From contig JBFLVP010000022.1 in assembly GCA_040758395.1 (NCBI GenBank), positions 24,968-56,967 of the forward strand: a stretch of DNA of 32,000 nucleotides, read 5' to 3'. The translations under genes were made by a program, and so were the position numbers. Below, piece by piece: positions 8,238-22,075 of this stretch. The notes under the pieces were generated by a model. That model ran no database searches, had not been told where the DNA came from, and worked only from the letters and a program-made list of their open reading frames with translations. The DNA is from Pseudomonadota bacterium (GTDB lineage: Bacteria > Pseudomonadota > Gammaproteobacteria > Halothiobacillales > Halothiobacillaceae). The stretch's first letter is position 1; each line of letters opens with the position of its first letter.

Positions 8238-9266
8238 ATGTACAACGACTACCCTGACACTCCGGAAGAAGCCGCTTCCAATCTGCGCCTTGTGCTGCAA
8301 ATGATGGGGCGCCACGAAATCCCTCCCAATCCGCGCAACTATGCACTCTGCTACGAATACATCCTTGCACGGAGCCCCTCCCTCAACAGAGCCATCGACA
8401 CTCAGCTCGAGCAACACGGGCGACTGTCTGAGGATGCCTCCCTCAGCCTGTTTGACGAGCACATCGCTCACGGCGCCATCGGCACCGTGCAGGGCGCCCA
8501 GGAAGAACTCAAGCGCATCCTGCGTTCGGTCATGCTTCAACTGCTCCATACCGGCAACGAATTCGCCCAATATGCCAACGGCCTGGGTACGCACATCGAG
8601 CGCTTGAGAGGCGACCCCGATGCCAGCCTTCTGCGCGAAATCACTCAGCATGTCGTCGATGACACACGTCAACTCGAAACCAGCAGCAAGTACTCGAGCA
8701 CACGCCTTTCCGGCGCAACGGAAGAAATCGAGCGGCTCCGCAAGGAACTGGACGAAGCAAGAAAGGATGCCAGCACCGACCCCCTGACCGGCCTCCTCAA
8801 CCGACGTGCTTTTACCACCGTCATCGCCAATGCCATCACCAAGCATCGCGCGGACCAGCAGCCGTTCTGTCTTCTGATGCTGGACATCGACCACTTCAAG
8901 GAAGTCAATGACACCTACGGGCATCTGGTCGGTGACAAGGTTCTGCGGTTTGTTAGCCGACTCCTGTCGCAAGTCCTCAAGGGACAGGACACTTTGTGCC
9001 GATTTGGTGGCGAGGAGTTCGCCGCACTGCTCCCGGATACCGGTCTTGATGGTGCGGAGCACGTGGCTGAAACCATCCGGAGTCGCCTGCTGAACAGTCA
9101 ACTCCGCCTGACGGAGAGCGGCCAGTCGCTGGGCGAAATCACCGCCTCCTTTGGCGTCGCCAAGTTCCGAGGCGACGAGACCATCGAGGAGATCATCCAG
9201 CGCACCGACCGTGCCCTGTATGAGGCCAAGCGCCTGGGCCGCAACCGGGTTTCGCGCGCGCAATAA
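8238..9266 (+). CDS. Diguanylate cyclase (GGDEF domain, GGEEF active site) with an N-terminal coiled-coil/sensor region
   Basis: Start set at ATG 8238 (MYNDYPDTPEE...); the ORF-track 5' extension overlaps the PilZ gene. The GGDEF core is DPLTGLLNRRAF ... DIDHFKEVNDTYGHLVGD ... RFGGEEFAALL. The I-site position reads KGQD rather than RxxD. Confidence 0.9.
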   Translation: MYNDYPDTPEEAASNLRLVLQMMGRHEIPPNPRNYALCYEYILARSPSLNRAIDTQLEQHGRLSEDASLSLFDEHIAHGAIGTVQGAQEELKRILRSVMLQLLHTGNEFAQYANGLGTHIERLRGDPDASLLREITQHVVDDTRQLETSSKYSSTRLSGATEEIERLRKELDEARKDASTDPLTGLLNRRAFTTVIANAITKHRADQQPFCLLMLDIDHFKEVNDTYGHLVGDKVLRFVSRLLSQVLKGQDTLCRFGGEEFAALLPDTGLDGAEHVAETIRSRLLNSQLRLTESGQSLGEITASFGVAKFRGDETIEEIIQRTDRALYEAKRLGRNRVSRAQ

Positions 9267-9269
9267 AAA

Positions 9270-9289
9270 GGCCGCCCCATGGGGCGGCC
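9270..9289. terminator. GC-rich hairpin after the cyclase gene, at the island's left junction
   Basis: GGCCGCCCC (9270-9278) pairs with GGGGCGGCC (9281-9289). It is preceded by AAAAA on the plus strand, which is TTTTT after the hairpin on the minus strand. It could therefore terminate both the cyclase gene and the island's minus-strand operon. Confidence 0.5.
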
Positions 9290-9370
9290 CCTGCAAGGTG
9301 GTGGGGGCAGCCACACTATCCGGCTCTAATGGCGCCACAGAAGCGTTCTTGCAGCGCGTGAATTTCGAGA

Positions 9371-9390
9371 TACCGTCAGAAATACCGTCA
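9371..9390 (+). promoter_or_regulatory. Left-end tandem TACCGTCA motifs (candidate integrase arm-type sites)
   Basis: TACCGTCA occurs at 9371-9378 and 9383-9390, with 12-bp periodicity. The 21-nt block matches the right-end block at 15633-15653 in 18/21 positions, in the same orientation. Confidence 0.5.
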
Positions 9391-9442
9391 CCGAGAAGGC
9401 GCTGCTGCCTTGTTATCCACTGTTACCAGCCTGTTCTCAGGG

Positions 9443-9607
9443 TCAGCGCTCGACAATCGGATCAGGCTTCGGGCCTTTCACGCGCTCAAGCCTGGGCTGC
9501 GGGTCGCCGGGTTTGGTGTCGTGATTCCTGGCCCGGTTGCGGGTTGCTGGGGTGCTGTCCGGCCTCATGGGGTTCTTCGGCTCGGTGGGGCCTTTGCGAT
9601 TGCTCAC
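9443..9607 (-). CDS. Hypothetical island protein (54 aa, basic, Pro-rich)
   Basis: The GTG start overlaps the upstream stop (GTGA) and is preceded by AGGAGA 5 nt upstream. Sequence: VSNRKGPTEPKNPMRPDSTPATRNRARNHDTKPGDPQPRLERVKGPKPDPIVER. No family recognised. Confidence 0.45.
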   Translation of the reverse strand: MSNRKGPTEPKNPMRPDSTPATRNRARNHDTKPGDPQPRLERVKGPKPDPIVER

Positions 9608-9816
9608 GGTCGTCTCCTGTGTTTGCGGGCTGCCTCGCGCTTCGCGTGCGCGGTGAGGATGTCCCAAAACTTGTCGAACTCGTTGTCGTCCATCATGTCC
9701 GGGTCCAAGCGCTCCAGCGGCGGCTCAGGGCCTGCGTTTGTCCCGGCGAGGGTCGATGATGCGGCCGCGCCCTTGCGAAGGCGCTCAATCTTGCGGCGAG
9801 GGTCGTCCATCGCCAT
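9604..9816 (-). CDS. Hypothetical island protein (70 aa)
   Basis: ATG start and high GC3. Sequence: MAMDDPRRKIERLRKG...DDNEFDKFWDILTAHAKREAARKHRRRP. It overlaps the upstream ORF by 32 nt. No family recognised. Confidence 0.5.
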   Translation of the reverse strand: MAMDDPRRKIERLRKGAAASSTLAGTNAGPEPPLERLDPDMMDDNEFDKFWDILTAHAKREAARKHRRRP

Positions 9817-9976
9817 GTTCCAGCTGTCGAAGCGCTTGGCGGACCTCGGCCAAGAGCAACAGCCCGACCTGGGCCTGAGAGTCGCCGAGGTCTGCTGATT
9901 GGCGAAGCCGCTTCAAGTAGCCCTCTCGCGTCGCCTTGTCGGGAATCAGGTTCGCACTGCCTGCGGGCCTAGCCAT
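9785..9976 (-). CDS. Hypothetical island protein (63 aa)
   Basis: ATG 9976 is preceded by GGAGG 7 nt upstream and overlaps the upstream stop (ATGGCTAG). Sequence: MARPAGSANLIPDKATREGYLKRLRQSADLGD.... The ORF-track version (start 10183) is an unlikely 5' extension. Confidence 0.45.
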   Translation of the reverse strand: MARPAGSANLIPDKATREGYLKRLRQSADLGDSQAQVGLLLLAEVRQALRQLEHGDGRPSPQD

Positions 9977-10283
9977 GTGAGCCCCTCCTGCGGCGCGATG
10001 CCTGCTCAGGTGCAGCCGGGGCCACATCCTCGGGCTCGGCCTTCTCAACGGGCGGAAGTTCGTCCGCAAGCTGCTGGATACCCGCTTGGGCGGCCTCAAG
10101 ATCATCGCCAAGGTGATGCCAGTTTCCCTCGGAAAGCAGCCAGAAACCCGGACGGTTGATCCCCTTCGGCGGACGGGAACCATTCTCGATGTCCCACAGC
10201 CAGAATCGGGTCACGCGCGTATATTTGACGCCACGGCTTTCGAGCATCGACTTGATTTCAGCAAGCCCGCGAGTGCTGGCCAT
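9969..10283 (-). CDS. Hypothetical island protein (104 aa), acidic/Pro-rich C-terminal half
   Basis: The ATG shares a base with the upstream TAA (TAATG), and GAGGAAGAG lies upstream as an SD. Codon bias is coding-like. No family recognised. Confidence 0.6.
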   Translation of the reverse strand: MASTRGLAEIKSMLESRGVKYTRVTRFWLWDIENGSRPPKGINRPGFWLLSEGNWHHLGDDLEAAQAGIQQLADELPPVEKAEPEDVAPAAPEQASRRRRGSHG

Positions 10284-10786
10284 TACTCTTCCTCAAAGAT
10301 GGGCTCGGAAAACGGGCCGTCTGCGATTCCGTCAGCTTTGCGCATATCGTCAAAGGCTTTATCCAGGTCCTCGTCAGAAATCTCACTCAGGATATTGCTC
10401 GGTGCCGATTCAAAACCACGCGACTTGGCGTAGGTATACATCGTCTCGGCGGGATTCCTTCCAGCCGCAACCTCGGCCCGAATCAGGCCGCCGACCTCGG
10501 ATTCCAGCGCGGCGTCCAGTTGCTCGTCGGTAAGCCCGAAAGCCTTGTATTCCTTCCGCCTGCCATCGACGACATGCTTGAGGGCGTCCGCGTAGTCCGG
10601 GCGCTGCGCCGCGAACTGTTTGGCCTGGCGGGCCACCTGGGCTTGAAGCTGCTGCATCTGCGCGGCCTGCGCCTGCTGCTGCGCGAAGGCATTCATCGCG
10701 TTGAGAATAGAATCCTGCTGGGCTTTCAGATAACCGACCGGATCATCTTCAAACCACTCTTGGTGACTCGTGTAATTGCGGGCCAT
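10283..10786 (-). CDS. Hypothetical island protein (167 aa): Gln/Ala-rich coiled coil plus a strongly acidic C-terminus
   Basis: Start set at ATG 10786 (MARNYTSHQEWF...), with GAGGT 7 nt upstream. The ORF-track start at 10837 would run through an upstream hairpin. It is the first gene of a five-gene coupled operon. Confidence 0.7.
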   Translation of the reverse strand: MARNYTSHQEWFEDDPVGYLKAQQDSILNAMNAFAQQQAQAAQMQQLQAQVARQAKQFAAQRPDYADALKHVVDGRRKEYKAFGLTDEQLDAALESEVGGLIRAEVAAGRNPAETMYTYAKSRGFESAPSNILSEISDEDLDKAFDDMRKADGIADGPFSEPIFEEE

Positions 10787-10810
10787 GGGAATACCTCGCT
10801 TTGAGAATAG

Positions 10811-10837
10811 GTGGGCGGAATTAACGTCGCCGCCCAC
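10811..10837 (-). promoter_or_regulatory. Leader hairpin immediately upstream of the small-ORF operon RBS
   Basis: GTGGGCGG (10811-10818) pairs with CCGCCCAC (10830-10837), an 8-bp stem with an 11-nt loop. It ends 24 nt upstream of ATG 10786. No U-tract follows it. Confidence 0.35.
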
Positions 10838-10845
10838 GACGGTTT

Positions 10846-10881
10846 GGCAATCGGCCTGGCAGGTAACTCAAGCCGATTGCC
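10846..10881. promoter_or_regulatory. 10-bp perfect inverted repeat (candidate operator) downstream of a TAATAT -10-like box
   Basis: GGCAATCGGC (10846-10855) pairs with GCCGATTGCC (10872-10881), with a 16-nt spacer. On the minus strand a TAATAT hexamer (10889-10894) lies just upstream. The corresponding -35 element (TTCGGT) is poor. Confidence 0.35.
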
Positions 10882-11046
10882 TGAATTCATATTACCGCAC
10901 TTTCACGATTTACCGAAGGTTAATGCCTGATTAACCCATACTGGTTTCTTGAGGCGCGAAAGAGGAATTAATGGGCGGACGAATCAGCATGTGCAGAGCG
11001 CTCAAAATGAGCACTTGAAAACCGCCGAAGCTCTCGCCGAGCAGTT

Positions 11047-11081
11047 CGGGCAAATGTTCGAAGCTTGCGGGCAAATGTTCG
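11047..11081. repeat. Two exact 14-bp direct repeats, CGGGCAAATGTTCG, 21 bp apart
   Basis: The copies are at 11047-11060 and 11068-11081, two helical turns apart. They lie in the 395-bp non-coding gap between the replication module and the small-ORF operon. Confidence 0.6.
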
Positions 11082-11234
11082 GACCCAGTTCTGGCAGCCT
11101 CGGGCGGTGAGTTTTGTGAGTTATTTCCGGCCCTGTTTATGTAAATGGCAGACTGGATGCTCCGCCAAGGGAAGGGACTTGTTCATGGTGGCCCCATAAG
11201 GGCTGGGCCTCGAAAAGTACCCGGATAAACTCCG

Positions 11235-11597
11235 TCAAGCCCCGCCTTTCAGGCTTACAGCCGCCCTGAAAGCGAAGGTTGCGGATTCGCCCGTCTGCAC
11301 TCTGCGCAGGAAGTCAGCGGCGGCGTCCGCGCTCTCGAAACAGGCGGAATCCATCAGGCGGCCACCGCGCACCAGCACGGCCCGGCTCGGCAAATCGGGG
11401 TCCGAGTTCCAGCCATCGGGATGGCCTGAATAGTCGTTGGAGCACAACCGCTTGAGCGCCGGGAGGTGGGCGCGGATCGCTGCCCGGTCGGCATCGGTCA
11501 AGCGTCTGGACGGATTCACCAAAAGCCGGTTTTTCGCATCAAGCCGAAAGTCGAAGCCGCGCTCGATCATGGCGAATAAAAATTCGGCGGCGGTCAC
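11235..11597 (-). CDS. Hypothetical island protein (120 aa); the N-terminus resembles a TubC_N-type docking motif
   Basis: The GTG start overlaps the helicase stop (GTGA), with GGAGGA 6 nt upstream. The N-terminus EFLFAMIERGFDFRLDAKNRLLVNPSRRLTDADRAAIRAHLPALKRL follows the G-hydrophobic-L...LT...R...I..H...L pattern of that small domain. This is recognition from memory only. Confidence 0.6.
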   Translation of the reverse strand: MTAAEFLFAMIERGFDFRLDAKNRLLVNPSRRLTDADRAAIRAHLPALKRLCSNDYSGHPDGWNSDPDLPSRAVLVRGGRLMDSACFESADAAADFLRRVQTGESATFAFRAAVSLKGGA

Positions 11598-13591
11598 CAG
11601 AATTCCTCCGGGTCATCCATATCTTCGCCAGTCCCGTTTTCTAGGTGGACATGGTGGACAGGTGGACAAGGCCAGTCAGAATGCGGGTTTGCGCCCGTCC
11701 ACCCGGTTTCATCAGTGGTGGACAGGTGGACAGCCTCGCCCCCCCTCGTGTCCACCTGTCCACCGTCCCCGTGGATATGGTGGACAGCCTCTAGCCCGCG
11801 TTGCGCCTGGGTTTGTCCACCCTGTCCACCTTGTCCACCCGATTTCGAGGGCTGCCCGGTTTCTTCATCGAACAAGATGGAATCCTTCACGGTGTACCAG
11901 CGGCCCCGGCCTAGCGGGGTGGATACTTGCGCCATCAGCTTTCGGTCATTGGTGAACAGGTGCCCAGCGCCCCGGATGGCCTGGGCAATGCTCTTCACGT
12001 CATGGCCCGGCGCGGCCTCAATCAAAGCCTCTTTGCTGAACATCCAGCGCCCCCCGGTCACGTCCCGGAATCCGGCGCGGTCGCGTACCTCGATCTCGCT
12101 CGCCGCGTCCTGAAAGCGTGCCCCATGTCGCAGGATGAAGGCGCGCACGGCCTCCAGGGTGCGTTCCCCGTCCGTGCCTGTAGCGTTGCTCCCCCATTGA
12201 GCGGCGACGGCTTGCACGGCCTGCCACACGCGGGCAGGGTTGACCGGGAGCACATCATGTCGGGCGGCGAACTCACCCGCCCATGCGATCAGGGCGAAGC
12301 GACGCAGGGCGCGGATTTGCTCGGGGGCGTGGTGCGGGCGTGTCATGTCCGCCGTGGCCTTGTCCAGGTGCTCCCGTACAGCGGCGCGGGCGGACTGGGC
12401 TGCGGGACAGGTGGCGATGATGGCGGACAGGACAGCAGGCCCCGCCGTGCCGTAGTTCACGGCGCAGGCCCGTTTCAGGTTTTGCACGAAGGCGGCGCGC
12501 TCATCCTCCGGCAGGTGGGCGGCGATGTCTTCCACCTCGATGTCCAGGGCGCGATGCAGCAGCCCGCCCTTGACCGGCCCGGTTTCGGACAGCTTGCCCT
12601 CGATGCTCATTTCCCCGGTGCTGATGGCGATGGTTCGCCATGCCCTGGGGGCCTTTAGCTGGCGGTCTGCCGACATGGCGGTTTTGCCCTGCCCTCCGGC
12701 TAGCTGATAGATCAGCGGGGCCATGTCCCGGTGTTGCCCGGCTCCAAGCTCATCCAAACACAGCGGAAGGTCGGCATGGGCTTCGGCCAAGCCCTCCAAG
12801 CCGTTGCCGGTAGTGTTCCAGCGGCGGACAAAGGACAAGGCCGGGGCCTCGGCAGGATCAACACCACAACCCCACACGGAAGCGGCAACCTGGGCAAGGG
12901 TGGTCTTCCCTCGGGACGTGGTGCCCCACAGGTGCACGATGAAGGAATCACCATCCCCCAGCAGCAGCCAAGGCGTGGCGAGCCCAGCGCAGACTGCGAA
13001 CAGGAGCGCGTCACTCCCGGCGATGCGTTCCCCTATCTCCCGTTGCCAGTCCTCCAGCGTGCCGGATGCGTGCACGGTCAAGGCGGTCGGGCTATACCGC
13101 TCCGGCTGGTAGACAACCTGGACGTTGCCTTCGGCAGTCAGCACGCGGTCGGGAAACACGAAGGCCATCCCCCCGTCCCGCCGATCCATCCAGCCAAGGC
13201 GCGGGGCGCTCGGGATGCGGTCCTCGGGCTTGAAGCTGGCGAGATAAGCCACCAGGCGGCGCTCTTTACCGGGGATGATGGCAAGGCCCATATTCGCCAG
13301 TTCGCGGGCAAGGATGGCGGGGTCCTCATGCAGGCGGGCGGCGGGGATGGCGAGCTGGCGGGCGTGCCCGTCATGATCCACGAAGGCCACCAGGCGGCCC
13401 CAATCTCCAGCGGTGCCGGTGGTCAGCCCGACAACCCACAGCGGGCCACACACAGCCTCCAGCTTGTGGCCTTCACCATCCTTGCCGGGCCTCACCTCGA
13501 ACACACCCGCGCCCCCTAGCTCCCAGCCATCCGGCGCGGCGATGCCATCCCACGGGCGCGGCGTAACTTCCACGTCTTCATCATGCAGCAT
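11594..13591 (-). CDS. DUF927-like P-loop replicative helicase / replication initiator
   Basis: Start set at ATG 13591 (MLHDEDVEV...), with AGGGGG upstream. Walker A is HLWGTTSRGKTTLAQVAASVWG and Walker B is LPLCLDELG. The overall layout resembles DUF927-family island and plasmid helicases. The low-complexity C-terminal tail is encoded by the octamer array. Confidence 0.85.
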   Translation of the reverse strand: MLHDEDVEVTPRPWDGIAAPDGWELGGAGVFEVRPGKDGEGHKLEAVCGPLWVVGLTTGTAGDWGRLVAFVDHDGHARQLAIPAARLHEDPAILARELANMGLAIIPGKERRLVAYLASFKPEDRIPSAPRLGWMDRRDGGMAFVFPDRVLTAEGNVQVVYQPERYSPTALTVHASGTLEDWQREIGERIAGSDALLFAVCAGLATPWLLLGDGDSFIVHLWGTTSRGKTTLAQVAASVWGCGVDPAEAPALSFVRRWNTTGNGLEGLAEAHADLPLCLDELGAGQHRDMAPLIYQLAGGQGKTAMSADRQLKAPRAWRTIAISTGEMSIEGKLSETGPVKGGLLHRALDIEVEDIAAHLPEDERAAFVQNLKRACAVNYGTAGPAVLSAIIATCPAAQSARAAVREHLDKATADMTRPHHAPEQIRALRRFALIAWAGEFAARHDVLPVNPARVWQAVQAVAAQWGSNATGTDGERTLEAVRAFILRHGARFQDAASEIEVRDRAGFRDVTGGRWMFSKEALIEAAPGHDVKSIAQAIRGAGHLFTNDRKLMAQVSTPLGRGRWYTVKDSILFDEETGQPSKSGGQGGQGGQTQAQRGLEAVHHIHGDGGQVDTRGGEAVHLSTTDETGWTGANPHSDWPCPPVHHVHLENGTGEDMDDPEEFW
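11644..11839. repeat. Dyad-symmetric array of TGTCCACC/GGTGGACA octamers (candidate origin iterons)
   Basis: GGTGGACA starts at 11644, 11653, 11661, 11717, 11725 and 11779. TGTCCACC starts at 11749, 11757, 11814, 11823 and 11832. A degenerate cGTCCACC starts at 11696. All six mirror pairs share one axis near 11741. Confidence 0.85.
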
Positions 13592-13925
13592 GGGCCACCC
13601 CCTTGGCTTTGAACGCGGCGAAGCCGTGCAAACGGCTGTTGATGGCGACGTGAACGGCCCCGGCATGGATCAAGCAACGGCCAAGACGTTGCAGCACCTC
13701 GGCGCGCTCGCCGGTGTCGATAACAAAGGCATGGCGGCTTTCGCGCACCACTCCCCAGTTGAAGCCCTCGGGCGCCTCGCCAGGGGGGAGGATCACCGCC
13801 TGGCCCCGCCAGTTGCGCGCCTCGCTCCAAGCCTGCGGCCCTGAAATGACGATGAGGCTCGCAAAGGGGGCGGATTGGTGCAGTGCCGCAATGGCGGCGA
13901 ATGGGGGGCGGCGTTGCCGCGTCAT
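13581..13925 (-). CDS. Hypothetical island protein (114 aa) between alpA and the helicase
   Basis: ATG 13925 lies 4 nt after the alpA stop, and the 3' end overlaps the helicase start by 11 nt, giving operon-style coupling. No family recognised. Confidence 0.6.
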   Translation of the reverse strand: MTRQRRPPFAAIAALHQSAPFASLIVISGPQAWSEARNWRGQAVILPPGEAPEGFNWGVVRESRHAFVIDTGERAEVLQRLGRCLIHAGAVHVAINSRLHGFAAFKAKGVAHAA

Positions 13926-13928
13926 GGC

Positions 13929-14183
13929 TTAACCCACCCCAGTTTTGAGGGGCTTGCCGCCCTGGGCGGCAGTGAACGAGCAGGACGCGCTGCCGCCACG
14001 CTGCTGGCAACGGGCTTCGATCCAGGCGTTAATTTCGTCGTCGCGCCAGGCGGCCACTCGTGGGCTGATTTTTACAGGCTTTGGTGCTGTTCCGAGACTG
14101 ACCCAGTGGTACCAGGTCGAGCGCGATACTCGCACTCGCGCCTGGACGTCGGGCCAGCGGAGGAATTGAACGGGTTGTTTCAT
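13929..14183 (-). CDS. alpA: AlpA family transcriptional regulator / excisionase-like DNA-binding protein
   Basis: Start set at ATG 14183, with GGAGA 7 nt upstream. FLRWPDVQARVRVSRSTWYHWVSLGTAPKPVKISPRVAAWRDDEINAWIEAR matches the Phage_AlpA helix-turn-helix pattern (SRST.Y......G.FP.P.K...R...W...E...W). Confidence 0.85.
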   Translation of the reverse strand: MKQPVQFLRWPDVQARVRVSRSTWYHWVSLGTAPKPVKISPRVAAWRDDEINAWIEARCQQRGGSASCSFTAAQGGKPLKTGVG

Positions 14184-14327
14184 GGGGCGTCTCCACACGG
14201 TTCCGGAGAGAACCGACTGGAATCCATGATGCCCGGCAGCGCTTGGCTAAAGCAAATCCTGAAAGGTGTTCAAAAACAAGGGCATACAGCGCTTAATACA
14301 CGTATCTACGCAAGGATACTATGGCAA

Positions 14328-14359
14328 TTGCTTATAGTTTGCTGCTGATCCATAAGCAA
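14328..14359 (-). promoter_or_regulatory. Candidate alpA-operon promoter built into an 8-bp inverted repeat
   Basis: TTGCTTAT (14328-14335) pairs with ATAAGCAA (14352-14359). Read on the minus strand this gives TTGCTT, a 17-nt spacer, then TATAAG (3/6 and 5/6 matches to the sigma70 consensus). It lies about 140 nt upstream of the alpA ATG and directly downstream of the int stop. Confidence 0.35.
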
Positions 14360-14367
14360 AACAGGTG

Positions 14368-15603
14368 TCAGGCCACGGACGGGAATCGGACCACCTCAGC
14401 CCCCGCTTTCAGCTTGCCCAGGTAGTCCGCCCACGCCTGCATCATCTTCCTGCGCTCCGGCAGGTGGGCGGTCCGGTTATAGGCCCTGCCGTTGGCATCC
14501 TTCACGGCGTGCGCCAACTGGTGCTCGATGAGGTCGATACGGAAGCCCAGCACCTCATCCAGCAGGGTGCGGGCGATGGCGCGGAAGCCGTGCCCGGTCA
14601 TCTCATCCTTGTGGATGTCCAGGCGGCGCATGGCGGACAGGATGGCGTTATCGCTCATGGGACGGGCGCGGGTGCGGGCGCTTGGGAAAACGTATTCACT
14701 CGCGCAGGTCAGGGGGTGAAGCTCGCGCAGAATCTCGACGGCCTGGCGGCTCAGGGGAACAACGTGCTCCGTCTTGGTTTTGCTTACGCGGTACACCCAT
14801 TCGGCGGCGTCCAGGTCCACATCACGCCAGCGCATGGTGCGCAGTTCGCCAGGACGGACGAAAACCAGCGGTGCAAGGCGCAGGGCGCAGGCCACGATGA
14901 AACCACCCTGATAGCCGTCCAGGGTGCGCAGCAAGGCCCCTACCCTTCGCTCGCGTTCCTTCGGCTCCAGGGTGCCATCAATGACGGCGGCAAGATGCTT
15001 TTCCCGTGCTGGCGGCAATGCGCCGCGCAGGTCGCCCGTGGGGTCGCGTTCGGCCCGTCCGGTCGCCACGGCGTAGCGGAAGATTTGCCCGCAGTTGCCC
15101 AGCACCCGGTGGGCGGTTTCCAGCGCCCCGCGTTCCTCGATTCGGCGAAGGTGAATCAGAAGCTCGGGCGCCTTGATGTCGGCAATGGGCTTGCTGCCCA
15201 ACCAGGGGAAGATGTCGCGCTCCAGTCGCTTGGTCATATTGTCCACATGGCGCGGGGACCAGGTGGGTGCGTACTTTGCCAGCCACTCGCGTGCGACTAC
15301 CTCGAAGCTGTTCGCGGCCCGCTCCTGTCCCGCTTGCTTGGCGGCCTTCCTGTGTTCGCCGGGGTCGATGCCTTGTGCAAGCTGCTCTCGCGCCTCGGTG
15401 TGTTTCCTGCGCGCTTCTTTCAGGCTCACGTCGGGGTAGGCCCCCAGGGCGAGGGTCTTTCGCTTGCCCATGTGGCGGTAGTCGTACCTCCACAGGCGTC
15501 CTCCCTTGGGGGTCACGAGAAGGTAGAGGCCCGCGCCGTCAGTCAGCTTGACGGGCTTGTCCGTGGGCTTGGCGTTGCGGATGGCGGTGTCGGTAAGGGG
15601 CAT
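14368..15603 (-). CDS. int: Tyrosine-type site-specific integrase, P4/CP4-57 family (DUF4102 N-terminal arm-binding domain)
   Basis: 411 aa. The N-terminus is LTDTAIRNAKPTDKPVKLTDGAGLYLLVTPKGGRLWRYDYR..GKRKTLALGAYPDVSLKEARRK. The catalytic region has HGFRAIARTLL and a C-terminal RAYNRTAHLPERRKMMQAWADYL. It lies next to the tmRNA 3' end. Confidence 0.95.
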   Translation of the reverse strand: MPLTDTAIRNAKPTDKPVKLTDGAGLYLLVTPKGGRLWRYDYRHMGKRKTLALGAYPDVSLKEARRKHTEAREQLAQGIDPGEHRKAAKQAGQERAANSFEVVAREWLAKYAPTWSPRHVDNMTKRLERDIFPWLGSKPIADIKAPELLIHLRRIEERGALETAHRVLGNCGQIFRYAVATGRAERDPTGDLRGALPPAREKHLAAVIDGTLEPKERERRVGALLRTLDGYQGGFIVACALRLAPLVFVRPGELRTMRWRDVDLDAAEWVYRVSKTKTEHVVPLSRQAVEILRELHPLTCASEYVFPSARTRARPMSDNAILSAMRRLDIHKDEMTGHGFRAIARTLLDEVLGFRIDLIEHQLAHAVKDANGRAYNRTAHLPERRKMMQAWADYLGKLKAGAEVVRFPSVA

Positions 15604-15661
15604 GACGGTATCTCGTCTGGCGGTAGCTCAAGTACCGTCAAAGATGCCGTCACATACCGCC
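15603..15661. promoter_or_regulatory. Right-end cluster of five TACCG(T/C)C(A) motifs (candidate integrase arm sites / int autoregulatory region)
   Basis: Direct copies: TACCGTCA 15633-15640, TGCCGTCA 15645-15652 and TACCGCC 15655-15661. Inverted copies: TGACGGTAT 15603-15611, which overlaps the int ATG, and GGCGGTA 15619-15625. Confidence 0.5.
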
Positions 15662-15704
15662 GGATTTCAAGAGGCGGCATCGCACACAGTCGGACGATGC
15701 GACA

Positions 15705-15730
15705 ATAAAAAACCCGCTAGAGTGCGGGTT
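15705..15730 (-). terminator. Rho-independent terminator downstream of ssrA
   Basis: On the minus strand the sequence reads AACCCGC-ACTCTA-GCGGGTT followed by TTTTTT. The stems are at 15724-15730 and 15711-17. It begins 36 nt after the tmRNA CCA end. Confidence 0.8.
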
Positions 15731-15765
15731 TCGTGGATGTCTTCGGATGTCGTCGGACTAAAATT

Positions 15766-16131
15766 TGGTGGAGGTGGGGGGAGTTGAACCCCCGTCCGCA
15801 AGCCCTCTGCTGTTGGCACTACATGCTTAGTCTCGCCTACTGGATTTAACCGCTCAGTCTCCGACGGACGGGATGCTGAACAGCGAGCCCTGAAGTTTTA
15901 GCCGCACGCTTTCGGGCAAAGCGCTTGGCGATTCTGTAATGGATGACCCCTGAATGGCCTTGCGGCCTCCGGACTTACAGACAAGAACCGGTCAGAGGCC
16001 CAGCCGGGTTAAGCGGCCAGGGAGTATACGTCGTCGTTGGCGTATATTTTTTTTGCGGCTGTTTCACGAGGTTTCCGCACCTCGGCATGCACCTCGAGCT
16101 TTGCAACCCACGTCGAAGCCAGGTCACCCCC
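15766..16131 (-). ncRNA. ssrA: tmRNA (transfer-messenger RNA, SsrA), 366 nt
   Basis: The 5' end GGGGGUGACCUGGCUUCGACG pairs with the 3' end ...GGUUCAACUCCCCCCACCUCCACCA, forming an acceptor stem with the G3:U pair plus a T-arm. The internal tag reading frame (16041-16009) is GCC AAC GAC GAC GTA TAC TCC CTG GCC GCT TAA, giving ANDDVYSLAA. Confidence 0.92.
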
Positions 16132-16145
16132 GAAGCATGTTAGGT

Positions 16146-16173
16146 ATGATGAGGCTTGGCGCGAAAAGTTCAA
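16146..16173 (-). promoter_or_regulatory. Possible ssrA promoter
   Basis: On the minus strand: TTGAAC (16173-16168), a 16-nt spacer, then CATCAT (16151-16146). It ends about 14 nt upstream of the mature 5' end, consistent with a short RNase P-processed leader. The -10 element is weak. Confidence 0.25.
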
Positions 16174-16212
16174 GGGCTGATTGAAGAACCTGTCTTCAAA
16201 ACGCCCACCGGC

Positions 16213-17154
16213 TCACACGAAAAAAGCAGGGGCGTGCTCAAGCAATTGCTCGCGGGTGAGCAGGAACACACCGTCCTCGCCATGCTCGAAATGCAGCCAG
16301 GTGAAAGGCACCTCGGGCCAGGTGGTTTCAACATGCACCATGCTGTTGCCGACCTCGACCATCAACACGCCACCGGCCTCCAGATGGTCCGGCGCCTCGC
16401 GCAAGATGCGGCGCACGATATCGAGCCCGTCCTCGCCCGCCGCCAAAGCCATGCGCGGTTCGTGCAGGTACTCGGGTGGCAGTTCGGCCATGTCGCGCGC
16501 ATCGACATAGGGCGGGTTGCTCACAATCAGGTCGTAGCGACGCCCCATCACCGGTGCGAAGAGATCACCCTCCAGAAGCTCAACCTGCTCCGTCAGCCCG
16601 AGCTTTTGACGATTGAGATGGGCAAGGTCGAGTGCCTCCGGAGACAGGTCAACCGCGTCAACCATCGCCTCCGGGAAGAAATGGGCACAGGCCAGCGCAA
16701 TGCAACCGCCACCGGTGCATAAATCGAGGACCCGCTGGACGCGGTCGCCTTCCACCCAAGGCTCGAAACCCTGCTGGATCAGCTCGCCAAAGGGCGAGCG
16801 CGGAACCAGGGCACGAGCGTCAACGTGAAACTCCAGCCCGGCAAACCACGCGCGGTTGACCAGATAGGCGGTTGGCACTCGCTCCACGCAACGGCGACGG
16901 AGGAGTTCGGCGACATGGTGCCGTTCGGTCGCGCTCAGGACCGAATCGAACCACTGCTGATCCAGATCCGGAGGCAGATCGAGGGCCTGCAGGACCAGAT
17001 AGGCGGCCTCATCCAGCGCATTGTCGGTGCCATGACCATAATGGACCTGGTGGCGCGAGAAGGCACTCATGGCCCAGCGCATGAAATCGCGCAGGGTGTG
17101 AAGATCCCTGGCGGCCTCGTCGAAACCCATCTCCTGCAATGGCTGCTTGTGCAT
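16213..17154 (-). CDS. prmB: 50S ribosomal protein L3 N5-glutamine methyltransferase
   Basis: 313 aa with VLDLCTGGGCIALA (SAM-binding motif) and the IVSNPPY catalytic motif. The N-terminal extension is typical of PrmB rather than PrmC. Confidence 0.88.
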   Translation of the reverse strand: MHKQPLQEMGFDEAARDLHTLRDFMRWAMSAFSRHQVHYGHGTDNALDEAAYLVLQALDLPPDLDQQWFDSVLSATERHHVAELLRRRCVERVPTAYLVNRAWFAGLEFHVDARALVPRSPFGELIQQGFEPWVEGDRVQRVLDLCTGGGCIALACAHFFPEAMVDAVDLSPEALDLAHLNRQKLGLTEQVELLEGDLFAPVMGRRYDLIVSNPPYVDARDMAELPPEYLHEPRMALAAGEDGLDIVRRILREAPDHLEAGGVLMVEVGNSMVHVETTWPEVPFTWLHFEHGEDGVFLLTREQLLEHAPAFFV

Positions 17155-17219
17155 GCTAGTCCCGTTCCCGCCCCTTCGGACGGTGTATCATCAAGTTTTC
17201 ATTCCGAGCCACGCAAACC

Positions 17220-18098
17220 ATGTCATCCAAGCTGCGTGACGCCCTGTTCGTCAGCCTGCAATATATCTTGCCTCACCACCTGATCTCACGCGCGGTCTAC
17301 GCCATGACCCGCTGGCGTACACCGTTGACCGCGCCCGCAATTCGAGCCTTCAGTAAGCATTTTGGAGTGAATCTGGAAGAGGCCGTGGAGAGTGACCCCT
17401 CCGCGTATCCAACCTTCAATGCCTTTTTCACCCGCCGACTGAAGCCCGGTCTCCGTGAATTTGCCGAAGGCGAAGACGTGGCCGCGTGCCCGGTGGATGG
17501 CACCATCAGCCAGTTCGGCCGCATCGAGGATGGCCGCATCTTCCAGGCCAAGGGGCATGACTATTCCCTGGTCGAATTGCTGGGTGGTGACCTCTCGCGG
17601 GCGGAGCCCTACCGCAACGGCCAGTTTGTCACCATCTACCTCTCACCGCGCGACTATCACCGTATCCACATGCCGCTGGCCGGCCAACTGACCCAGATGG
17701 TGCATGTGCCCGGTCGGCTGTTCTCGGTCAACCCGTTGACGGTCGCGCGGGTGCCACGCCTGTTTGCCCGCAACGAACGCGTCGCCGCGTTATTCGAAAC
17801 AGCCGAGGGGCCGATGGGCATGGTGTTGGTTGGGGCGATCAATGTCGCGGCCATCGAGACCGTATGGTCCGGCTTGGTAACCCCGCCACGCGGGCGGGAA
17901 ATCAGCGTATGGAACTATGGTGAGCAGGTCAGCGTCAATTTGCCGCGTGCAGCCGAGATGGGGCGTTTCAACATGGGATCGACCGTCATACTCCTGCTAC
18001 CACAGGATTTTGCCTTCCGCCCCGACCTGGCCCCCGGCATGCCGGTCCGCCTGGGTGAGGCCTTGGCCCAGCGCCTGCCCTGGCCAGAGTCCGCCTAA
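17220..18098 (+). CDS. psd: Phosphatidylserine decarboxylase proenzyme
   Basis: 292 aa with FFTRRLKPG, YLSPRDYHRIHMP and the self-cleavage motif FNMGSTVILL (the G-S-T site). Confidence 0.92.
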   Translation: MSSKLRDALFVSLQYILPHHLISRAVYAMTRWRTPLTAPAIRAFSKHFGVNLEEAVESDPSAYPTFNAFFTRRLKPGLREFAEGEDVAACPVDGTISQFGRIEDGRIFQAKGHDYSLVELLGGDLSRAEPYRNGQFVTIYLSPRDYHRIHMPLAGQLTQMVHVPGRLFSVNPLTVARVPRLFARNERVAALFETAEGPMGMVLVGAINVAAIETVWSGLVTPPRGREISVWNYGEQVSVNLPRAAEMGRFNMGSTVILLLPQDFAFRPDLAPGMPVRLGEALAQRLPWPESA

Positions 18099-18200
18099 AC
18101 CGCCGATGGTGGTGACCACGATGAACAGGCTGTGAATAACTCCACTCGAGCCGCATTGTAATCAACGTGGAGTAGCTATACTGGCCTTGAACATCGCGAT

Positions 18201-19979
18201 ATGGAATTGAACATGGATGCTGGCCTTACCGAGCAACTGCTTCACAGTCCTGACAAACTTCGCGAACACCTGGCCTCGCAGGCGAGCATGAGCCCGATGC
18301 GAGATGCACTTGCTCTGAGTGCCGTGCTCAGTTCATCCGAATTCGCGCTGTTGCATGGCAAGACATTGGTGGAGTGTCTTGAAGCCGCCTGGCCCAGCGC
18401 GTCGGAATGGCTGAAGTCCATCGAACGCAAGATCAACCTCGCCTGCAACCAGAGCAACTCTGAGGAATGCGAGGATCTGCATGCCCACAACCGACTCTCA
18501 TCCAGTCTGCTTGATGGTTATCAGCGCTCCATCGAGGAACTGCGGGGTACCCGTGAACCATGGTGGGGGTCCTCTCCCCGCTTGATTGCACTTACCCGTG
18601 CAGCAGATCTATTGGTTCGCACGGCCATCCTGAGACGGCAACTCTACAATGGGACACCCGATAAGCTGTGGCTCAGCCTGCATGCACTGATCCAGGAGGC
18701 TGAACGCACCCACCTGCTGACCAAATCATTTCAGCACGGGAATCGGGAAGCCGCTGAGCCCAGCCTGCAAGCACGTTACATTGCCTTTGCCCTGCTCAAC
18801 ACAGCTTCGCCCGAAGGGATGCCCGCGCACGAAATCCCCCCCCTTCACGCCTACCTCCTTCATCTTGCGAGCCAGACCACCCTCGGCGCCACCCTGCACA
18901 ATCAGCCCGGAAGTTTCCTCCTTCTCCACTTGGAGTGCGATGCACCACCGGTTCTGGAACATGACATTGCAACCCTGAACGCCATCGATGCCCGTCTGAT
19001 CGACCCCGCGCCAGTCATCCATGCCTTGCGCTTGATGCTCGCACAAAGCGATCAGGATCATCTTCTTGTTAGGGAATCGGCTGTCGTGCTCTCACGCGCC
19101 ACCATCGAGCGCTGTATCGAGCGATTGGGCGAGCGAGCGGAACGCAAGTCACAACGCTCGACGGCGAAAGGGATAGCCTGCCTGTGGTCTGGACGATGCA
19201 GTGTCATCCATCGCCTGCAACAGCGGGCAAACATCCCCCAGGCGTGGCGGGAATGTGTGAACGCTCCACCCGAGGCATCCCCTCCTCCCGAAGAAATCAT
19301 TCATCTCGATCGTGAAGGGGTGGATGCCCCACCGCGCGAAACGCTGCGACTAACCCCATTGCGTCGCTCACATTCCGCGGATGAGCTTTGGGAAATGGTG
19401 TCTCAGCGCCACCTCATCGAGGATAAACAGACCGGTGGCAAGACGTCAGATCACTCCCCTCAGCCCGCGGGTGATCTCAAACCATCCAAACTGATACATG
19501 GCATGTCACTCCTGGATGCGAGCCTTCAGGGCTTGCGCTTGCGGGGTCCAAGCCCAGCCGGCCAGCCCCTGAAGGTCGGCGATCCACTCTTGATCGAGTT
19601 TCCCGATGCAAGCCGTGATGGTTACGTCATTGGCGTACTGCGCTGGCAGAAGAGCCTTGGCGAGCAACATGTCGAGGTCGGCATCGAGGTTCTCGCTCAC
19701 AGTGCCCTCCCTTTGCGGGTCTCGGCTCCTCAGAGCAACACCACCGCCTGGTTCGATGCACTGATCATGACTCAGTCCATGCTGGGCAACGCCCCCTTGA
19801 TCATGTTGCCAAACAATAACTACCATGCGGGTTCAGTGATCATGACGTCCCATGAAGGCACGATGGTCCAATTGCGCCTGGGTCGCAAAATGTTGCAGAC
19901 CGCAGCCATTGCCGTGTTCCAGTTCCGCGGTGAACACCCGGCCGAGGACGAAGCCGCCTACTCCATGCCCCGCCCGTGA
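18201..19979 (+). CDS. Hypothetical protein (592 aa) with a C-terminal PilZ-like beta-barrel domain
   Basis: The C-terminal roughly 150 aa contain LLDASLQGLRL (DxSxxG), then VGDPLLIEF ... GVLRWQK ... VEVGIEVL, a PilZ-like pattern. There is no RxxxR at the canonical distance; the nearest, RETLR, is about 55 aa upstream. The stop overlaps the next gene's GTG (GTGA). Confidence 0.7.
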   Translation: MELNMDAGLTEQLLHSPDKLREHLASQASMSPMRDALALSAVLSSSEFALLHGKTLVECLEAAWPSASEWLKSIERKINLACNQSNSEECEDLHAHNRLSSSLLDGYQRSIEELRGTREPWWGSSPRLIALTRAADLLVRTAILRRQLYNGTPDKLWLSLHALIQEAERTHLLTKSFQHGNREAAEPSLQARYIAFALLNTASPEGMPAHEIPPLHAYLLHLASQTTLGATLHNQPGSFLLLHLECDAPPVLEHDIATLNAIDARLIDPAPVIHALRLMLAQSDQDHLLVRESAVVLSRATIERCIERLGERAERKSQRSTAKGIACLWSGRCSVIHRLQQRANIPQAWRECVNAPPEASPPPEEIIHLDREGVDAPPRETLRLTPLRRSHSADELWEMVSQRHLIEDKQTGGKTSDHSPQPAGDLKPSKLIHGMSLLDASLQGLRLRGPSPAGQPLKVGDPLLIEFPDASRDGYVIGVLRWQKSLGEQHVEVGIEVLAHSALPLRVSAPQSNTTAWFDALIMTQSMLGNAPLIMLPNNNYHAGSVIMTSHEGTMVQLRLGRKMLQTAAIAVFQFRGEHPAEDEAAYSMPRP

Positions 19980-22075
19980 ACAACGTAATGAGCAAACCAG
20001 CACCCTTGCGCCTGATCGCCTTTCACGATTCGATCAATGACGCTGTTGCCCTCGCCAGTCAGCTCCGCAATGCCGGTGTTCAGGCGCAAGCCCGCCATGC
20101 CGAGGATCTCCCTCAACTTCATGAACTCTTGCGCGAGGAAAACGCGGATCTTGTTCTGCACCTGCTCGAGTTGCCCGAACCCACCCTGGCCGAGGTGGTG
20201 CAAAGCCTCTCGACACGCCAACCCGCATTGCCCGTACTGGGCATGACGGAAGATTACAATATCGAGCGCCTTGGTCAGGCCATCCGTGACGGAGCGGTGG
20301 ACCTGATCGCTCTGGAGCACCCCCCTCATCTGCTTCACGTCATCCGTCGCGAGATGGAGGCTCTCAACTCCCGCCGCCGCCTTGTCCAGCTCGAGAGCAT
20401 GCACCAGGAGTCCGAGCGCCGCTGTCATGCCTTGATGGAAAGCTCCCGCGACGCCATAGCCTATGTCCATGGCGGCATGCACATCTACGCCAACGCGGTA
20501 TACCTTGAAAAGCTTGGGTTCAAGCGTCTGGAGGATATGGAAGGCACTCCACTGCTGGATCAGGTGGACCATCGCGATCACTCTCGGCTGCGGGAACTCA
20601 TGCGCGAGCAACCGGATGGCGAGGGCCAGTCGAACACGCTCGACGAGGTCGAGTTCAAGCGCCAGGATGGCAGCAGCTTCAAGGCCTCGGTCGAGATCTC
20701 GCCCGCCACCATCGAGGGGGAACCCTGCACCCAGGTGCTCATTCGCACCCGCGACGACACCAAGGCCCTGGAGGAGCAGATCAACTTCCTCAGCCAGCGC
20801 GATCTTCTGACCGGCCTCTACAACCGCCAGTACTTCCTCCAGCAACTCGAAGCAGGGCTCAACGCAGCACGCGAAGAGGAGCATCAGGCCGCCCTCATCC
20901 ACCTGCAAATCACCAACACGAAGGACATCAAGCACAAGCTTGGGGTGGCCGGCATGGATGTGCTGATCACCGAGGCCGGCAAACTGATCGAGAAAGTGGT
21001 CGGCCCCGAAACGCTGCTCTCACGTTACGGAGCCCATGCCTTTGCCGTCTTGATCGCCGATCATGACAGTCAGAATGCGGCCAGCTTCGCACGCAAGATC
21101 ATCAGCTGTCTGACCCAGCACATCTTCGAGGTTGGCGGACAGTCCACCACCGTCAAGGTTGCAGCCGGCATCGCCCTCCTTGACCAAGATACTCCGAGCG
21201 TCAACGAACTGCTCAACCGCGCCGAACGCGCCACCATGGATGCCGAAGCCCATCCATCCGACGATGTAGCGCTCTACAAGCCCAAGGAAGGCGAGGTTTC
21301 ACAGGGTGAGCAAGATGAGCAGTGGAATCGTCTTCTGCGGGATGCCCTGCGTGCCAACCGCTTCCGTCTATTGTTCCAGCCTCTCCTCAGCTTGCAGGGT
21401 GAGACCGGGCGCCAGCGCTATGAAACCTTCCTCCGCCTGCTTGACGAACAGGGGCAGCCGATCTCGCCGAGTGTGTTCATTGCCGCCGCCGAACGTACCG
21501 AGATCAGCCGCGCCATTGACCGCTGGGTCATACTCAACGCCCTGCAACAGATCGCGGAAGCGCGCCAGCGCCAGCTCCGCGTGCAGCTATTCGTGCGCCT
21601 TTCCTCACGCACCGTGGCCGACCCCGAATTCCCCGGCTGGCTCAGCGAACGCCTGATGGCCATGCAGATCCACGATGGCTCGCTGGCGGTTGAAATCAGC
21701 GAATCGGTTGCCGCCGACCATCTCAAGCAGACCAAGGACCTCCAGCGCCATCTTACCAGCATCAACTGCCCGATCCTGATCGACGGTTTTGGTCTGGGCG
21801 ATGACCCCTTCCGGGTGCTCAACTACCTTGATGTCCAATGGCTCAAGCTTGATCGCAGCCTGATGGAATCCTTCGCCAGCCAGAAGGCGAATCAGGAGAA
21901 AGTGCGCGAACTGATCCGTACCAACAAGGAGCGCAGCGGCAACCAGCTGATCGTGGCCAACGTCGAGGATGCCACGACGCTCCAGCTGGTACTTGGCGAC
22001 GGGGCGGACTTTGTCCAGGGGAACTTCATTCAGCCCCCTGTCGAACGACTCGATTTCGACTTCAACGCCTTCTGA
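19976..22075 (+). CDS. FimX-like c-di-GMP signalling protein: REC-like, PAS, degenerate GGDEF and degenerate EAL domains
   Basis: The GGDEF position reads RYGAHAF. The EAL domain keeps ETF-LRL, EISE, KLD and QG, but has VRLSS where the family has NLS, DGFG in place of DDFG, and ANVED in place of AEGVE. The PAS region is SRDAIAYVHGGMHIYANAVYLEKLGF. Alternative start at ATG 19988. Confidence 0.85.
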   Translation: MNNVMSKPAPLRLIAFHDSINDAVALASQLRNAGVQAQARHAEDLPQLHELLREENADLVLHLLELPEPTLAEVVQSLSTRQPALPVLGMTEDYNIERLGQAIRDGAVDLIALEHPPHLLHVIRREMEALNSRRRLVQLESMHQESERRCHALMESSRDAIAYVHGGMHIYANAVYLEKLGFKRLEDMEGTPLLDQVDHRDHSRLRELMREQPDGEGQSNTLDEVEFKRQDGSSFKASVEISPATIEGEPCTQVLIRTRDDTKALEEQINFLSQRDLLTGLYNRQYFLQQLEAGLNAAREEEHQAALIHLQITNTKDIKHKLGVAGMDVLITEAGKLIEKVVGPETLLSRYGAHAFAVLIADHDSQNAASFARKIISCLTQHIFEVGGQSTTVKVAAGIALLDQDTPSVNELLNRAERATMDAEAHPSDDVALYKPKEGEVSQGEQDEQWNRLLRDALRANRFRLLFQPLLSLQGETGRQRYETFLRLLDEQGQPISPSVFIAAAERTEISRAIDRWVILNALQQIAEARQRQLRVQLFVRLSSRTVADPEFPGWLSERLMAMQIHDGSLAVEISESVAADHLKQTKDLQRHLTSINCPILIDGFGLGDDPFRVLNYLDVQWLKLDRSLMESFASQKANQEKVRELIRTNKERSGNQLIVANVEDATTLQLVLGDGADFVQGNFIQPPVERLDFDFNAF

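Follow-up and report, generated by a model that had tools for sequence, protein, structure and literature searches.

A putative minimal phage satellite with scaffold-derived cargo at the ssrA locus of a Halothiobacillaceae-like gammaproteobacterium

We analyzed a 32,000-nt window of a Pseudomonadota genome (NCBI GenBank assembly GCA_040758395.1, contig JBFLVP010000022.1, positions 24,968 to 56,967 of the forward strand), in which an island of about 6,470 bp lies between the 3' end of the transfer-messenger RNA (tmRNA) gene ssrA (position 15766) and the terminator of a GGDEF gene (near position 9297). [quoted passage not shown] All of its genes are on the minus strand and read leftward in the order int, alpA, orf114, a DUF927 helicase gene, orf120, a noncoding gap, and then the cargo open reading frames (ORFs) orf167, orf104, orf63, orf68, and orf54, which overlap or abut one another. 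Judged by sequence homology, two of the cargo proteins, those of orf167 and orf68, derive from a putative phage head-scaffold family.

A first-pass annotation of the same DNA had described a small int-alpA-helicase island at ssrA with every gene on one strand, and ARAGORN, Rfam, Pfam, and PHROGs bear this out. Its satellite-like character is backed by a near-empty site in a relative, arm-type recombination sites, a Rep/Cch-type helicase with iterons, and the recurrence of the integrase module in a second genomic context; satellite behavior itself (helper, induction, and packaging) is what we infer from these. As that annotation had also reported, no Toprim or primase domain, relaxase, capsid, terminase, tail, lysis, or conjugation family was found in the island with Pfam, PHROGs, NCBIfam, and PADLOC, nor was there an oriT-like feature, a coupling protein, or a portal match (the last in Pfam and PHROGs). 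Its phrase "no structural genes" is nevertheless misleading, given that the largest cargo gene (orf167) and the tiny orf68 trace to the putative scaffold family, and its left boundary of 9261 has to be moved to about 9297 to 9300, as positions 9261 to 9296 comprise the GGDEF stop codon and a chromosomal terminator hairpin.

Insertion at ssrA

The block is a true insertion because a collinear relative has only a 417-bp scar in its place. This relative, L007, matches the window over approximately 21 kb on both sides, breaks from it in the island region only at ssrA, and there replaces 6.48 kb of the window (15724 to 9245) with a stretch of 417 bp. Core synteny is ruled out by this difference, and the empty-site comparison that had been suggested for the interval thus returned a near-empty site. 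L007 belongs to a set of genomes whose PrmB proteins are 75 to 80% identical to that of the window and which place the host among Halothiobacillaceae-like Gammaproteobacteria; look-ups of exact matches to the flanking GGDEF and PrmB proteins gave none. In four other loci (L008, L009, L010, and L012), a terminator directly follows the tmRNA.

The 417 bp in L007 are themselves the scar of an earlier island. Within L007:11730-12090 are an island-type post-tmRNA terminator, a 54-amino-acid (aa) remnant of an integrase N terminus that ends in frame at the att-like sequence CCCCGCCACCA, and then the chromosomal terminator, which shows internal deletion to be a way in which islands disappear from ssrA. 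In a neighboring species (L011:11700-19600), the island at ssrA is larger; it has genes for an integrase 79.5% identical to that of the window, for RadC and AlpA, and for a 947-aa DUF927 protein bearing an N-terminal DUF6371 region, together with an ORF of 114 aa. In this clade, ssrA is a shared hotspot for int/alpA/DUF927 elements, and its full islands, tandem blocks, and scars form a natural series for studying island turnover.

The integrase module also occurs in a second metagenome-assembled genome (L001; GCA_040755075.1, contig JBFMBN010000078.1), which matches the window at 100% identity from 13430 onward, up to a break at exactly 15771 that falls five bases within the tmRNA and beyond which the two are unrelated; the integrase is listed under two NCBI accessions. 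In L001 (L001:1-8360), the identical int-alpA-orf114 module is preceded not by tmRNA but by another block, which encodes a VapC/PIN toxin with a helix-turn-helix partner, a DarT-Macro (DarTG) pair, and a DUF499/DUF1156/DUF3780 cluster, and which looks like a tandem or accreted defense island at the ssrA hotspot. A short segment of the same locus, L001:8137-8160, resembles a fragment of the tmRNA T arm (ACGGACGCGGGTTCGATTCCG) and may be a second att remnant.

The tmRNA gene, whose 3' end is the integration target, occupies 15766 to 16131 on the minus strand (ARAGORN; Rfam RF00023, 207 bits) and encodes the tag ANDDVYSLAA. Just downstream, at 15709 to 15732 (minus strand), a terminator scan located a hairpin that is supplied by the island, and the same type of hairpin follows the tmRNA in L007 and L011. 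The attL crossover region (15766 to 15771; CCACCA on the minus strand) was placed from the point at which identity with L001 breaks and from the core that it has in common with attR. At the far end, attR (9297 to 9316, minus strand) is an imperfect copy of the tmRNA 3' end, reading CTGCCCCCACC, three absent positions, and ACC versus CTCCCCCCACCTCCACC, and the chromosome resumes at 9296; read across this boundary on the minus strand, the island ends in GTGTGGCTGCCCCCACCACC and the chromosome continues with TTGCAGG. Like attR, the junction in L001 and the scar in L007 have the tmRNA end in a form shorter by 3 nt. The only exactly shared core is CACC (9297 to 9300 and 15767 to 15770), so that the crossover position is approximate; the predicted attP junction joins GGCTGCCCCCACCACC to AAATTTTAGTCC.

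The gene adjoining attL encodes a 411-aa P4-type tyrosine integrase (14368 to 15603, minus strand) with Arm-DNA-bind_3, Phage_int_M, and Phage_integrase domains (PF13356, PF22022, and PF00589; also phrog_1 and NF007246). Between its start and the tmRNA 3' end there are 163 bp, and domains and coordinates alike agree with the earlier description on this point. Arm-type sites flank the crossover at both ends of the island. The 9-mer ATACCGTCA occurs exactly three times in the 32 kb, always at island ends, and with one mismatch tolerated, its copies pair up into two doublets of like orientation and 12-bp period, one at the far end (9370 and 9382, spanning 9370 to 9390) and one on the int side (15632 to 15640 and 15644 to 15652), whose centers are 81.5 bp and 126.5 bp from the core, respectively. 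The int-side sites (15603 to 15652 overall) include an inverted copy at 15603 to 15611. This fifth copy overlaps the int start codon (window 15601 to 15611), and Int bound there could repress its own translation or transcription. In the integrase clade of helper-embedded PICIs (HE-PICIs), attP contains a doubled motif that repeats with this period and lies 81 ± 2 and 132 ± 2 bp away from the center (PMC10111431), a layout that the island matches.

The helicase and its putative origin

The replication module is built around a 665-aa predicted replicative helicase of the DUF927 family (11594 to 13591, minus strand; PF06048, E = 2.8e-60) with the Walker A motif GTTSRGKTT. Its nearest solved relatives are Cch of SCCmec, the methicillin resistance type of staphylococcal cassette chromosome (SCC) (PDB 5DGK, "active helicase"; E = 2.6e-17), and a protein of a Staphylococcus aureus pathogenicity island (SaPI) (8TCH, "pathogenicity island protein"; E = 2.5e-15). 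Homology across the ATPase core and the presence of iterons by the gene place it in the SaPI Rep/SCCmec Cch helicase family, and because it scores 73.6 bits against NCBIfam Cch1, far under the equivalog cutoff of 700, it is a relative and not an orthologue of Cch. None of the 17 closest full-length homologues (65 to 89% identity) has more than the helicase, and each is about 665 aa long. At approximately 50% identity, relatives carry fused Toprim, PriCT, zinc-finger, or Prim-Pol domains, and one locus, L004, has a separate 316-aa Toprim primase gene directly upstream of its helicase gene. IMG/VR contained no relative of the helicase, and a scan of JGI metagenomes returned one weak and uninformative match.

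Within the last 250 bp of the helicase gene, at 11644 to 11839, GGTGGACA is present 11 times, 6 times in forward and 5 times in reverse orientation, with a roughly symmetric arrangement; the expected number of copies is 0.007. The same array is present in L003, whose helicase is 89% identical (L003:3276-3471), and the same layout is built of GGTGGGCA in L005 (74% helicase identity; L005:2655-2860) and of YGGGGCA in L004 (76% helicase identity; L004:11750-11935). Because the layout is kept while the repeat sequence changes with the helicase, the array is a likely origin of replication. The C-terminal tail of the helicase (GGQGGQGGQ...VHH...) is largely a translation of the iteron repeats. This covariation of iteron and helicase offers a ready-made, natural specificity series for an initiator and its origin.

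The genes on either side of the helicase gene recur with it. Directly upstream, orf114 (13581 to 13925, minus strand) has homologues at 36 to 40% identity in the equivalent position in L003, L095, and L096; the idea that it is a degenerate Toprim domain is unsupported (profile comparison probability, 1.7%), and searches of the PDB gave only chance-level matches to crystallins. Directly downstream, orf120 (11235 to 11597, minus strand) overlaps the helicase stop by 4 nt and has no match in PDB sequence and fold searches; a gene of 116 to 131 aa follows the helicase gene in every relative examined, with clear homology to orf120 only in L003 (orf123, 58% identity). The order int-alpA-orfX-DUF927-orfY is repeated in L003, L095, and L096, and parts of it occur in L004 and L005.

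Between orf114 and int lies the gene for an 84-aa AlpA-family regulator (13929 to 14183, minus strand; PF05930 [Phage_AlpA], E = 7e-10; phrog_66), which is likely an excision cofactor. Upstream of alpA, in the interval that separates it from int, the sequence has a promoter-like stretch (TTGCTT-N17-TATAAG) containing the inverted repeat TTGCTTAT/ATAAGCAA (14328 to 14359, minus strand).

Cargo related to a putative scaffold family

The largest cargo gene, orf167 (10283 to 10786, minus strand), encodes a homologue of the central domain of phage proteins of about 300 aa. When orf167 was compared with phage genomes by tblastn, the single match was gp08 (289 aa) of the Paracoccus podophage KLEP18-1, and the two proteins are 33% identical over 114 aligned positions (E = 2e-16). 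An exhaustive HMMER search recovered 1480 relatives, typically of 280 to 330 aa, and orf167 aligns to residues 110 to 250 (approximately) of this family, the N-terminal third (about 110 residues) being absent. In all three annotated phages that carry a member (KLEP18-1, Rhizobium phage RHph_Y1_10, and Podoviridae sp. ctDrO704), the family gene sits between those for the portal and the major capsid protein. This interval is the classical position of a scaffold gene. An AlphaFold (AF2) model of orf167 is all helical, with a predicted local distance difference test (pLDDT) score of 86.8 when based on an alignment; this model was used in preference to one from the single sequence (pLDDT, 63). The six best matches to the model in BFVD are phage proteins of this family, 270 to 335 aa long, two of which are named "Scaffolding protein" in their source. 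A word-indexed homologue search of orf167 returned only itself, and a search of IMG/VR with orf167 alone returned nothing. Three short scaffold homologues (P0154, P0160, and P0169) are on contigs too small to reveal their gene context.

A second piece of the same family is recognizable in orf68 (9604 to 9810, minus strand). A hidden Markov model (HMM) of the last 50 residues of the family, which carries the motif L..MSDxEFDKxW, matches orf68 with an E value of 1.4e-9 among the 653 six-frame ORFs of the window and of 6e-8 among the 28,121 ORFs of all fetched loci. By this match, orf68 is essentially the C-terminal tail of the putative scaffold family with a basic end; orf167 itself keeps a weak version of the C-terminal motif.

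The two genes are held together with orf104 (9969 to 10283) and orf63 (9785 to 9976), both on the minus strand, in a module that recurs in another integrated element. This element is on a 3-kb contig, L090, which ends at the host gene ychF, and its genes follow the same order: orf188 (36% identical to orf167), orf144 (31% to orf104), orf57 (49% to orf63), and orf70 (35% to orf68), the last of which also matches the C-terminal scaffold HMM (E = 1e-11). Because the L090 ORFs are intact at 30 to 49% identity, we argue that these four genes form a module that is probably under selection and not a decaying fragment. For orf104, no family or PDB match was found (Pfam, PHROGs, NCBIfam, PADLOC, and PDB sequence and fold searches), and orf63 has no homologue beyond L090 orf57, a word-indexed search having returned only itself. 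Of the five small ORFs initially proposed, these four are backed by conservation in L090, but orf54 (9443 to 9607, minus strand) has no support beyond base composition: it is called as a gene in L002, has no homologue in L090, and alone among the island ORFs lacks a clear coding signal in G+C content by codon position, the signal at third positions (GC3) being ambiguous with the opposite strand.

A noncoding gap of about 450 bp (10787 to 11234, minus strand) precedes the cargo operon. The first-pass annotation had noted the gap but gave it 395 bp, a length that runs to 10837, where the longest form of the ORF starts. It contains two copies of CGAACATTTGCCCG (11047 to 11081) and a hairpin with a 13-bp stem (10846 to 10881), and it may serve as a promoter, an operator, or a packaging site. 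In L090, the gap before the scaffold-like module has four tandem GTATTGAG-like repeats (L090:230-300) in a position equivalent to that of the two CGAACATTTGCCCG copies in the window; the gap sequences are not otherwise conserved between the two elements. These repeats are possibly activator sites, and together with the inverted repeat upstream of alpA, the gap features are consistent with regulated operons.

The cargo of other islands with related helicases is of different kinds: L003 has an HNH endonuclease gene, L004 one for a DUF5681 protein, and L005 hardly any cargo, and in L095 and L096 there is a DNA_pol_B_exo2 block. In L003, the place of the scaffold genes is taken by a gene for a 111-aa HNH endonuclease (L003:3931-4266; phrog_144/589). 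Enzymes of this type sit beside terminase in cos phages, and this cargo suggests that islands of the helicase family exploit different helpers in different ways. DUF5681 proteins, which have an N-terminal GNGRF..G...GRP-type motif, recur as cargo of small islands (L004:12442-12936 and L090:2192-2545) and have a possible role in packaging; the sole paper that we found to name the family reports it in the virion proteome of a Salmonella phage (PMC8954984). Downstream of the related island in L096 (65% helicase identity), positions 15727 to 22004 of that locus encode a TacA/TacT-like toxin-antitoxin pair and a Wadjet-like JetA/JetB/JetC cluster. Outside the island, the window and L007 differ by a second indel: window positions 24844 to 27476 (about 2.6 kb, with an Na/H exchanger-TrkA_N gene and a 294-aa ORF) correspond to approximately 30 bp in the otherwise collinear L007.

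Interpretation and relation to known satellites

If the island is a satellite, its life cycle can be outlined from these parts. In residence, it occupies the 3' end of ssrA, provides the tmRNA terminator, and repeats the tmRNA end, in degenerate form, at its other boundary. Going by what is known of such families, a helper phage would switch alpA on, and AlpA and Int would then release a 6.47-kb circle, as in PICMIs and Gram-negative PICIs, with Int using the doubled arm sites approximately 81 and 127 bp to either side of the CACC crossover. The helicase, related to the self-loading helicases SaPI Rep and SCCmec Cch, would load at the 11 GGTGGACA iterons in its own gene, as SaPI Rep does at its origin, and start replication; primers would have to be supplied by the host or the helper, the element having no primase gene. 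The products of orf167 and orf68, which are homologous to the putative scaffold family, would compete with the scaffold of a helper podophage for its coat protein; by analogy with CpmB of SaPI1, the outcome would be smaller capsids or blocked helper assembly, either of which would favor the satellite. The genome may be packaged as multimers, as in PICMIs.

Several observations weigh against this interpretation. No helper phage was identified, and the window contains no prophage; IMG/VR yielded no relative of the element, no exact match to the reconstructed attP junction, and no circular junction. No TerS, HNH, or recognizable cos or pac site was found in this element, and it encodes no primase, though close relatives have one fused or adjacent. 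The attR sequence, which differs from the tmRNA end by a 3-nt gap and has an exact core of 4 bp, could be partly decayed and the crossover position approximate. The scaffold family is unnamed in Pfam, PHROGs, and the PDB, in which both sequence and fold searches gave nothing, so that its members are called putative scaffolding proteins from where their genes lie, from their composition, and from the names given by their sources. Among the other DUF927 islands examined, none has a scaffold homologue, and their cargo is unrelated.

Some of these same observations would suit an integrative, self-replicating island with no helper-specific packaging, in which the scaffold fragments act as an anti-phage decoy that poisons podophage capsid assembly and any transfer is by generalized or lateral transduction. 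An element with neither TerS nor a pac or cos site fits such an island, as does the L001 context, where the same int module abuts the DarT-Macro, DUF499/DUF1156/DUF3780, and VapC block, and there is a precedent in tmRNA-adjacent int/alpA islands that lack transfer genes, carry defense cargo, and are moved by jumbo phages (PMC12595487). Those islands, however, are 20 to 70 kb long, have alpA at the far end, and possess a different 23-bp end sequence. PADLOC finds no defense system in the present island (its sole match is a weak one, of mad1 to AlpA), so that the anti-phage cargo once proposed for it has no support there. Moreover, autonomous replication combined with AlpA is the signature by which PICI and PICMI satellites are recognized, and the known satellites interfere with capsids as part of the same function by which they spread. 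We therefore regard the decoy island as unlikely.

Erosion offers another account of the same gaps, under which a satellite or prophage fragment has been stranded at ssrA and its split scaffold, missing primase, and imperfect attR are signs of decay. The L007 scar, after all, shows that islands at ssrA do decay, orf54 is doubtful, the scaffold homologue is truncated and "split," and a primase is absent where relatives have one. But every core ORF is uninterrupted and has GC3 of the coding type, the array of iterons is whole, and the int module is 100% identical in two metagenome-assembled genomes and two contexts; the 17 closest homologues are, as a rule, helicase-only as well, at about 665 aa, and the split arrangement, kept with intact ORFs in L090 at 30 to 49% identity, points to selection. 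Nor is any tail, terminase, portal, or capsid remnant detected with Pfam or PHROGs, and a stranded remnant seems to us quite improbable. The specific case of a large decayed prophage, which the first-pass annotation had raised as a way in which the small ORFs might be explained, was rejected on the grounds that the island lacks further phage genes and that L090 has kept the module. Very improbable indeed is an integrative mobilizable element that hitches on a conjugative element and uses its helicase for plasmid-like maintenance after excision. Small islands with an integrase and a replicase can be mobilizable, and helicases of the DUF927/Cch type are found as well in SCC elements, which are not satellites of phages, but the searches of the island that found no relaxase, oriT-like feature, coupling protein, or conjugation family speak against it, as does cargo derived from a phage head gene.

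Satellites are, to our knowledge, known in detail from few host groups only, and we know of few mechanisms by which capsid size is redirected that have been worked out (Sid of P4; CpmAB, Ccm, and Rcm of SaPIs; and TcaP of PLE, an element that resembles PICIs). Against this background, we raise, tentatively and with less than even confidence, a more specific proposal: that the island represents the first satellite lineage in sulfur-oxidizing Halothiobacillaceae-like bacteria, and that it preys on podophages by means of a "split scaffold," consisting of a central oligomerizing domain protein and a CpmB-sized coat-binding tail peptide, which forces small capsids for one or two copies of the 6.5-kb genome. 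Such a hijack of the internal scaffold would be independent of SaPI CpmB and recognizable by direct homology to the helper scaffold. If the satellite interpretation is right, a 6.5-kb element shows that the minimal set consists of an integrase, AlpA, a self-loading helicase with an in-gene origin, and two scaffold pieces, and truncated scaffold homologues beside int/alpA/replicase modules become a sequence rule for finding satellites together with their helpers.

A parallel to the cargo is offered by SaPI1, whose CpmB has the helix-and-hook found at the C terminus of the 80alpha scaffold and contends with that scaffold for one site on the coat protein (PMC5644958). In the island, orf68 (68 aa, compared with 72 aa for CpmB) shares the C-terminal segment of a family of putative phage scaffolds, a tail that may bind coat protein to judge by gene position and source names, and the helicase is related to SaPI Rep and SCCmec Cch (8TCH and 5DGK), with iterons next to or within the gene. 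The island differs from SaPI1 in its Gram-negative host, in having no Stl-type repressor, TerS, or CpmA homologue, and in having a second, larger scaffold-derived protein (orf167) whose homology spans a whole domain and not a short motif. With P4-like satellites, it has in common a P4-type integrase, an AlpA-like regulator, and 8-bp iterons of the sort recognized by a replication protein. The type I iteron of P4 is TGTTCACC, beside which the iteron of the island can be set as TGTCCACC. Unlike P4, the island has no alpha-type primase-helicase, Sid, Psu, or Delta (Pfam and PHROGs) and does not fall within the P4 definition; there is no C4/isrK-type match to a CI RNA in Rfam at E ≤ 1, and P4 uses an external scaffold (Sid) and not a mimic of the internal one.

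The tmRNA islands transduced by jumbo phages (I23, I44, and I55; PMC12595487) resemble the present one in their tyrosine integrase immediately downstream of tmRNA, in alpA, in the absence of autonomous transfer genes, and in a short direct repeat over the last tmRNA bases. They differ in size (20 to 70 kb), in a distal alpA, in RadC/YqaJ/Gp2-like core genes, and in their defense systems, and they have neither a DUF927 helicase-ori module nor scaffold genes. Islands of the I55 type are recognized by intY downstream of tmRNA together with a distal alpA or the 23-bp end sequence TTCAGATTACCCCGGCTCCACCA (PMC12595487); here, int does lie downstream of tmRNA, but alpA adjoins it and the distal end reads GTGTGGCTGCCCCCACCACC.

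In size, the island belongs with the PICMIs of the Vibrionaceae, satellites built on int, alpA, and a primase, of which PICMI115 is 6.1 kb (PMC10803314), so that it does not mark the extreme small end at which it had been placed. The plan of int, alpA, one replication protein, and a few tiny genes is also the same. However, PICMI primases are DUF3987/DUF5906 proteins, whereas only DUF927 is present here; PICMIs adjoin fis and not the 3' end of ssrA; and they package as concatemers in full-size capsids (PMC10803314), by definition lacking capsid-remodeling genes, a role that the scaffold-derived orf167 and orf68 would have in this element.

Gram-negative PICIs are organized into zones for integration, replication, and late functions, with the origin downstream of pri, and the DUF927 Pfam family is counted within their "Primase" family (PMC10111431). 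As in those of the EcCICFT073 type, the island runs in one direction from int and alpA, which are together at one end and co-oriented with the other genes, through a candidate replication gene with a putative origin at or near its 3' end to a late zone; AlpA takes the place of a master repressor, and attP has a doubled, co-oriented arm motif about 81 and 127 to 132 bp from the crossover. The late zone contains the scaffold-family genes orf167 and orf68, apparently taken from a phage head module, with no tail, lysis, terminase, or portal matches. It departs from these PICIs in being about half the usual size with no Bro zone, in a helicase-only replication protein in which no primase domain was detected (Pfam, PHROGs, and NCBIfam), in a late gene that is a truncated putative scaffold and not a capsid protein, TerS, or Rpp, and in a Halothiobacillaceae-like instead of an enterobacterial host, with ssrA as its site. 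Apart from the absent primase domain and its size, the element fits the PICI zone plan and resembles a Gram-negative PICI reduced to the size of a PICMI, a variant within a general class of element that is already known.

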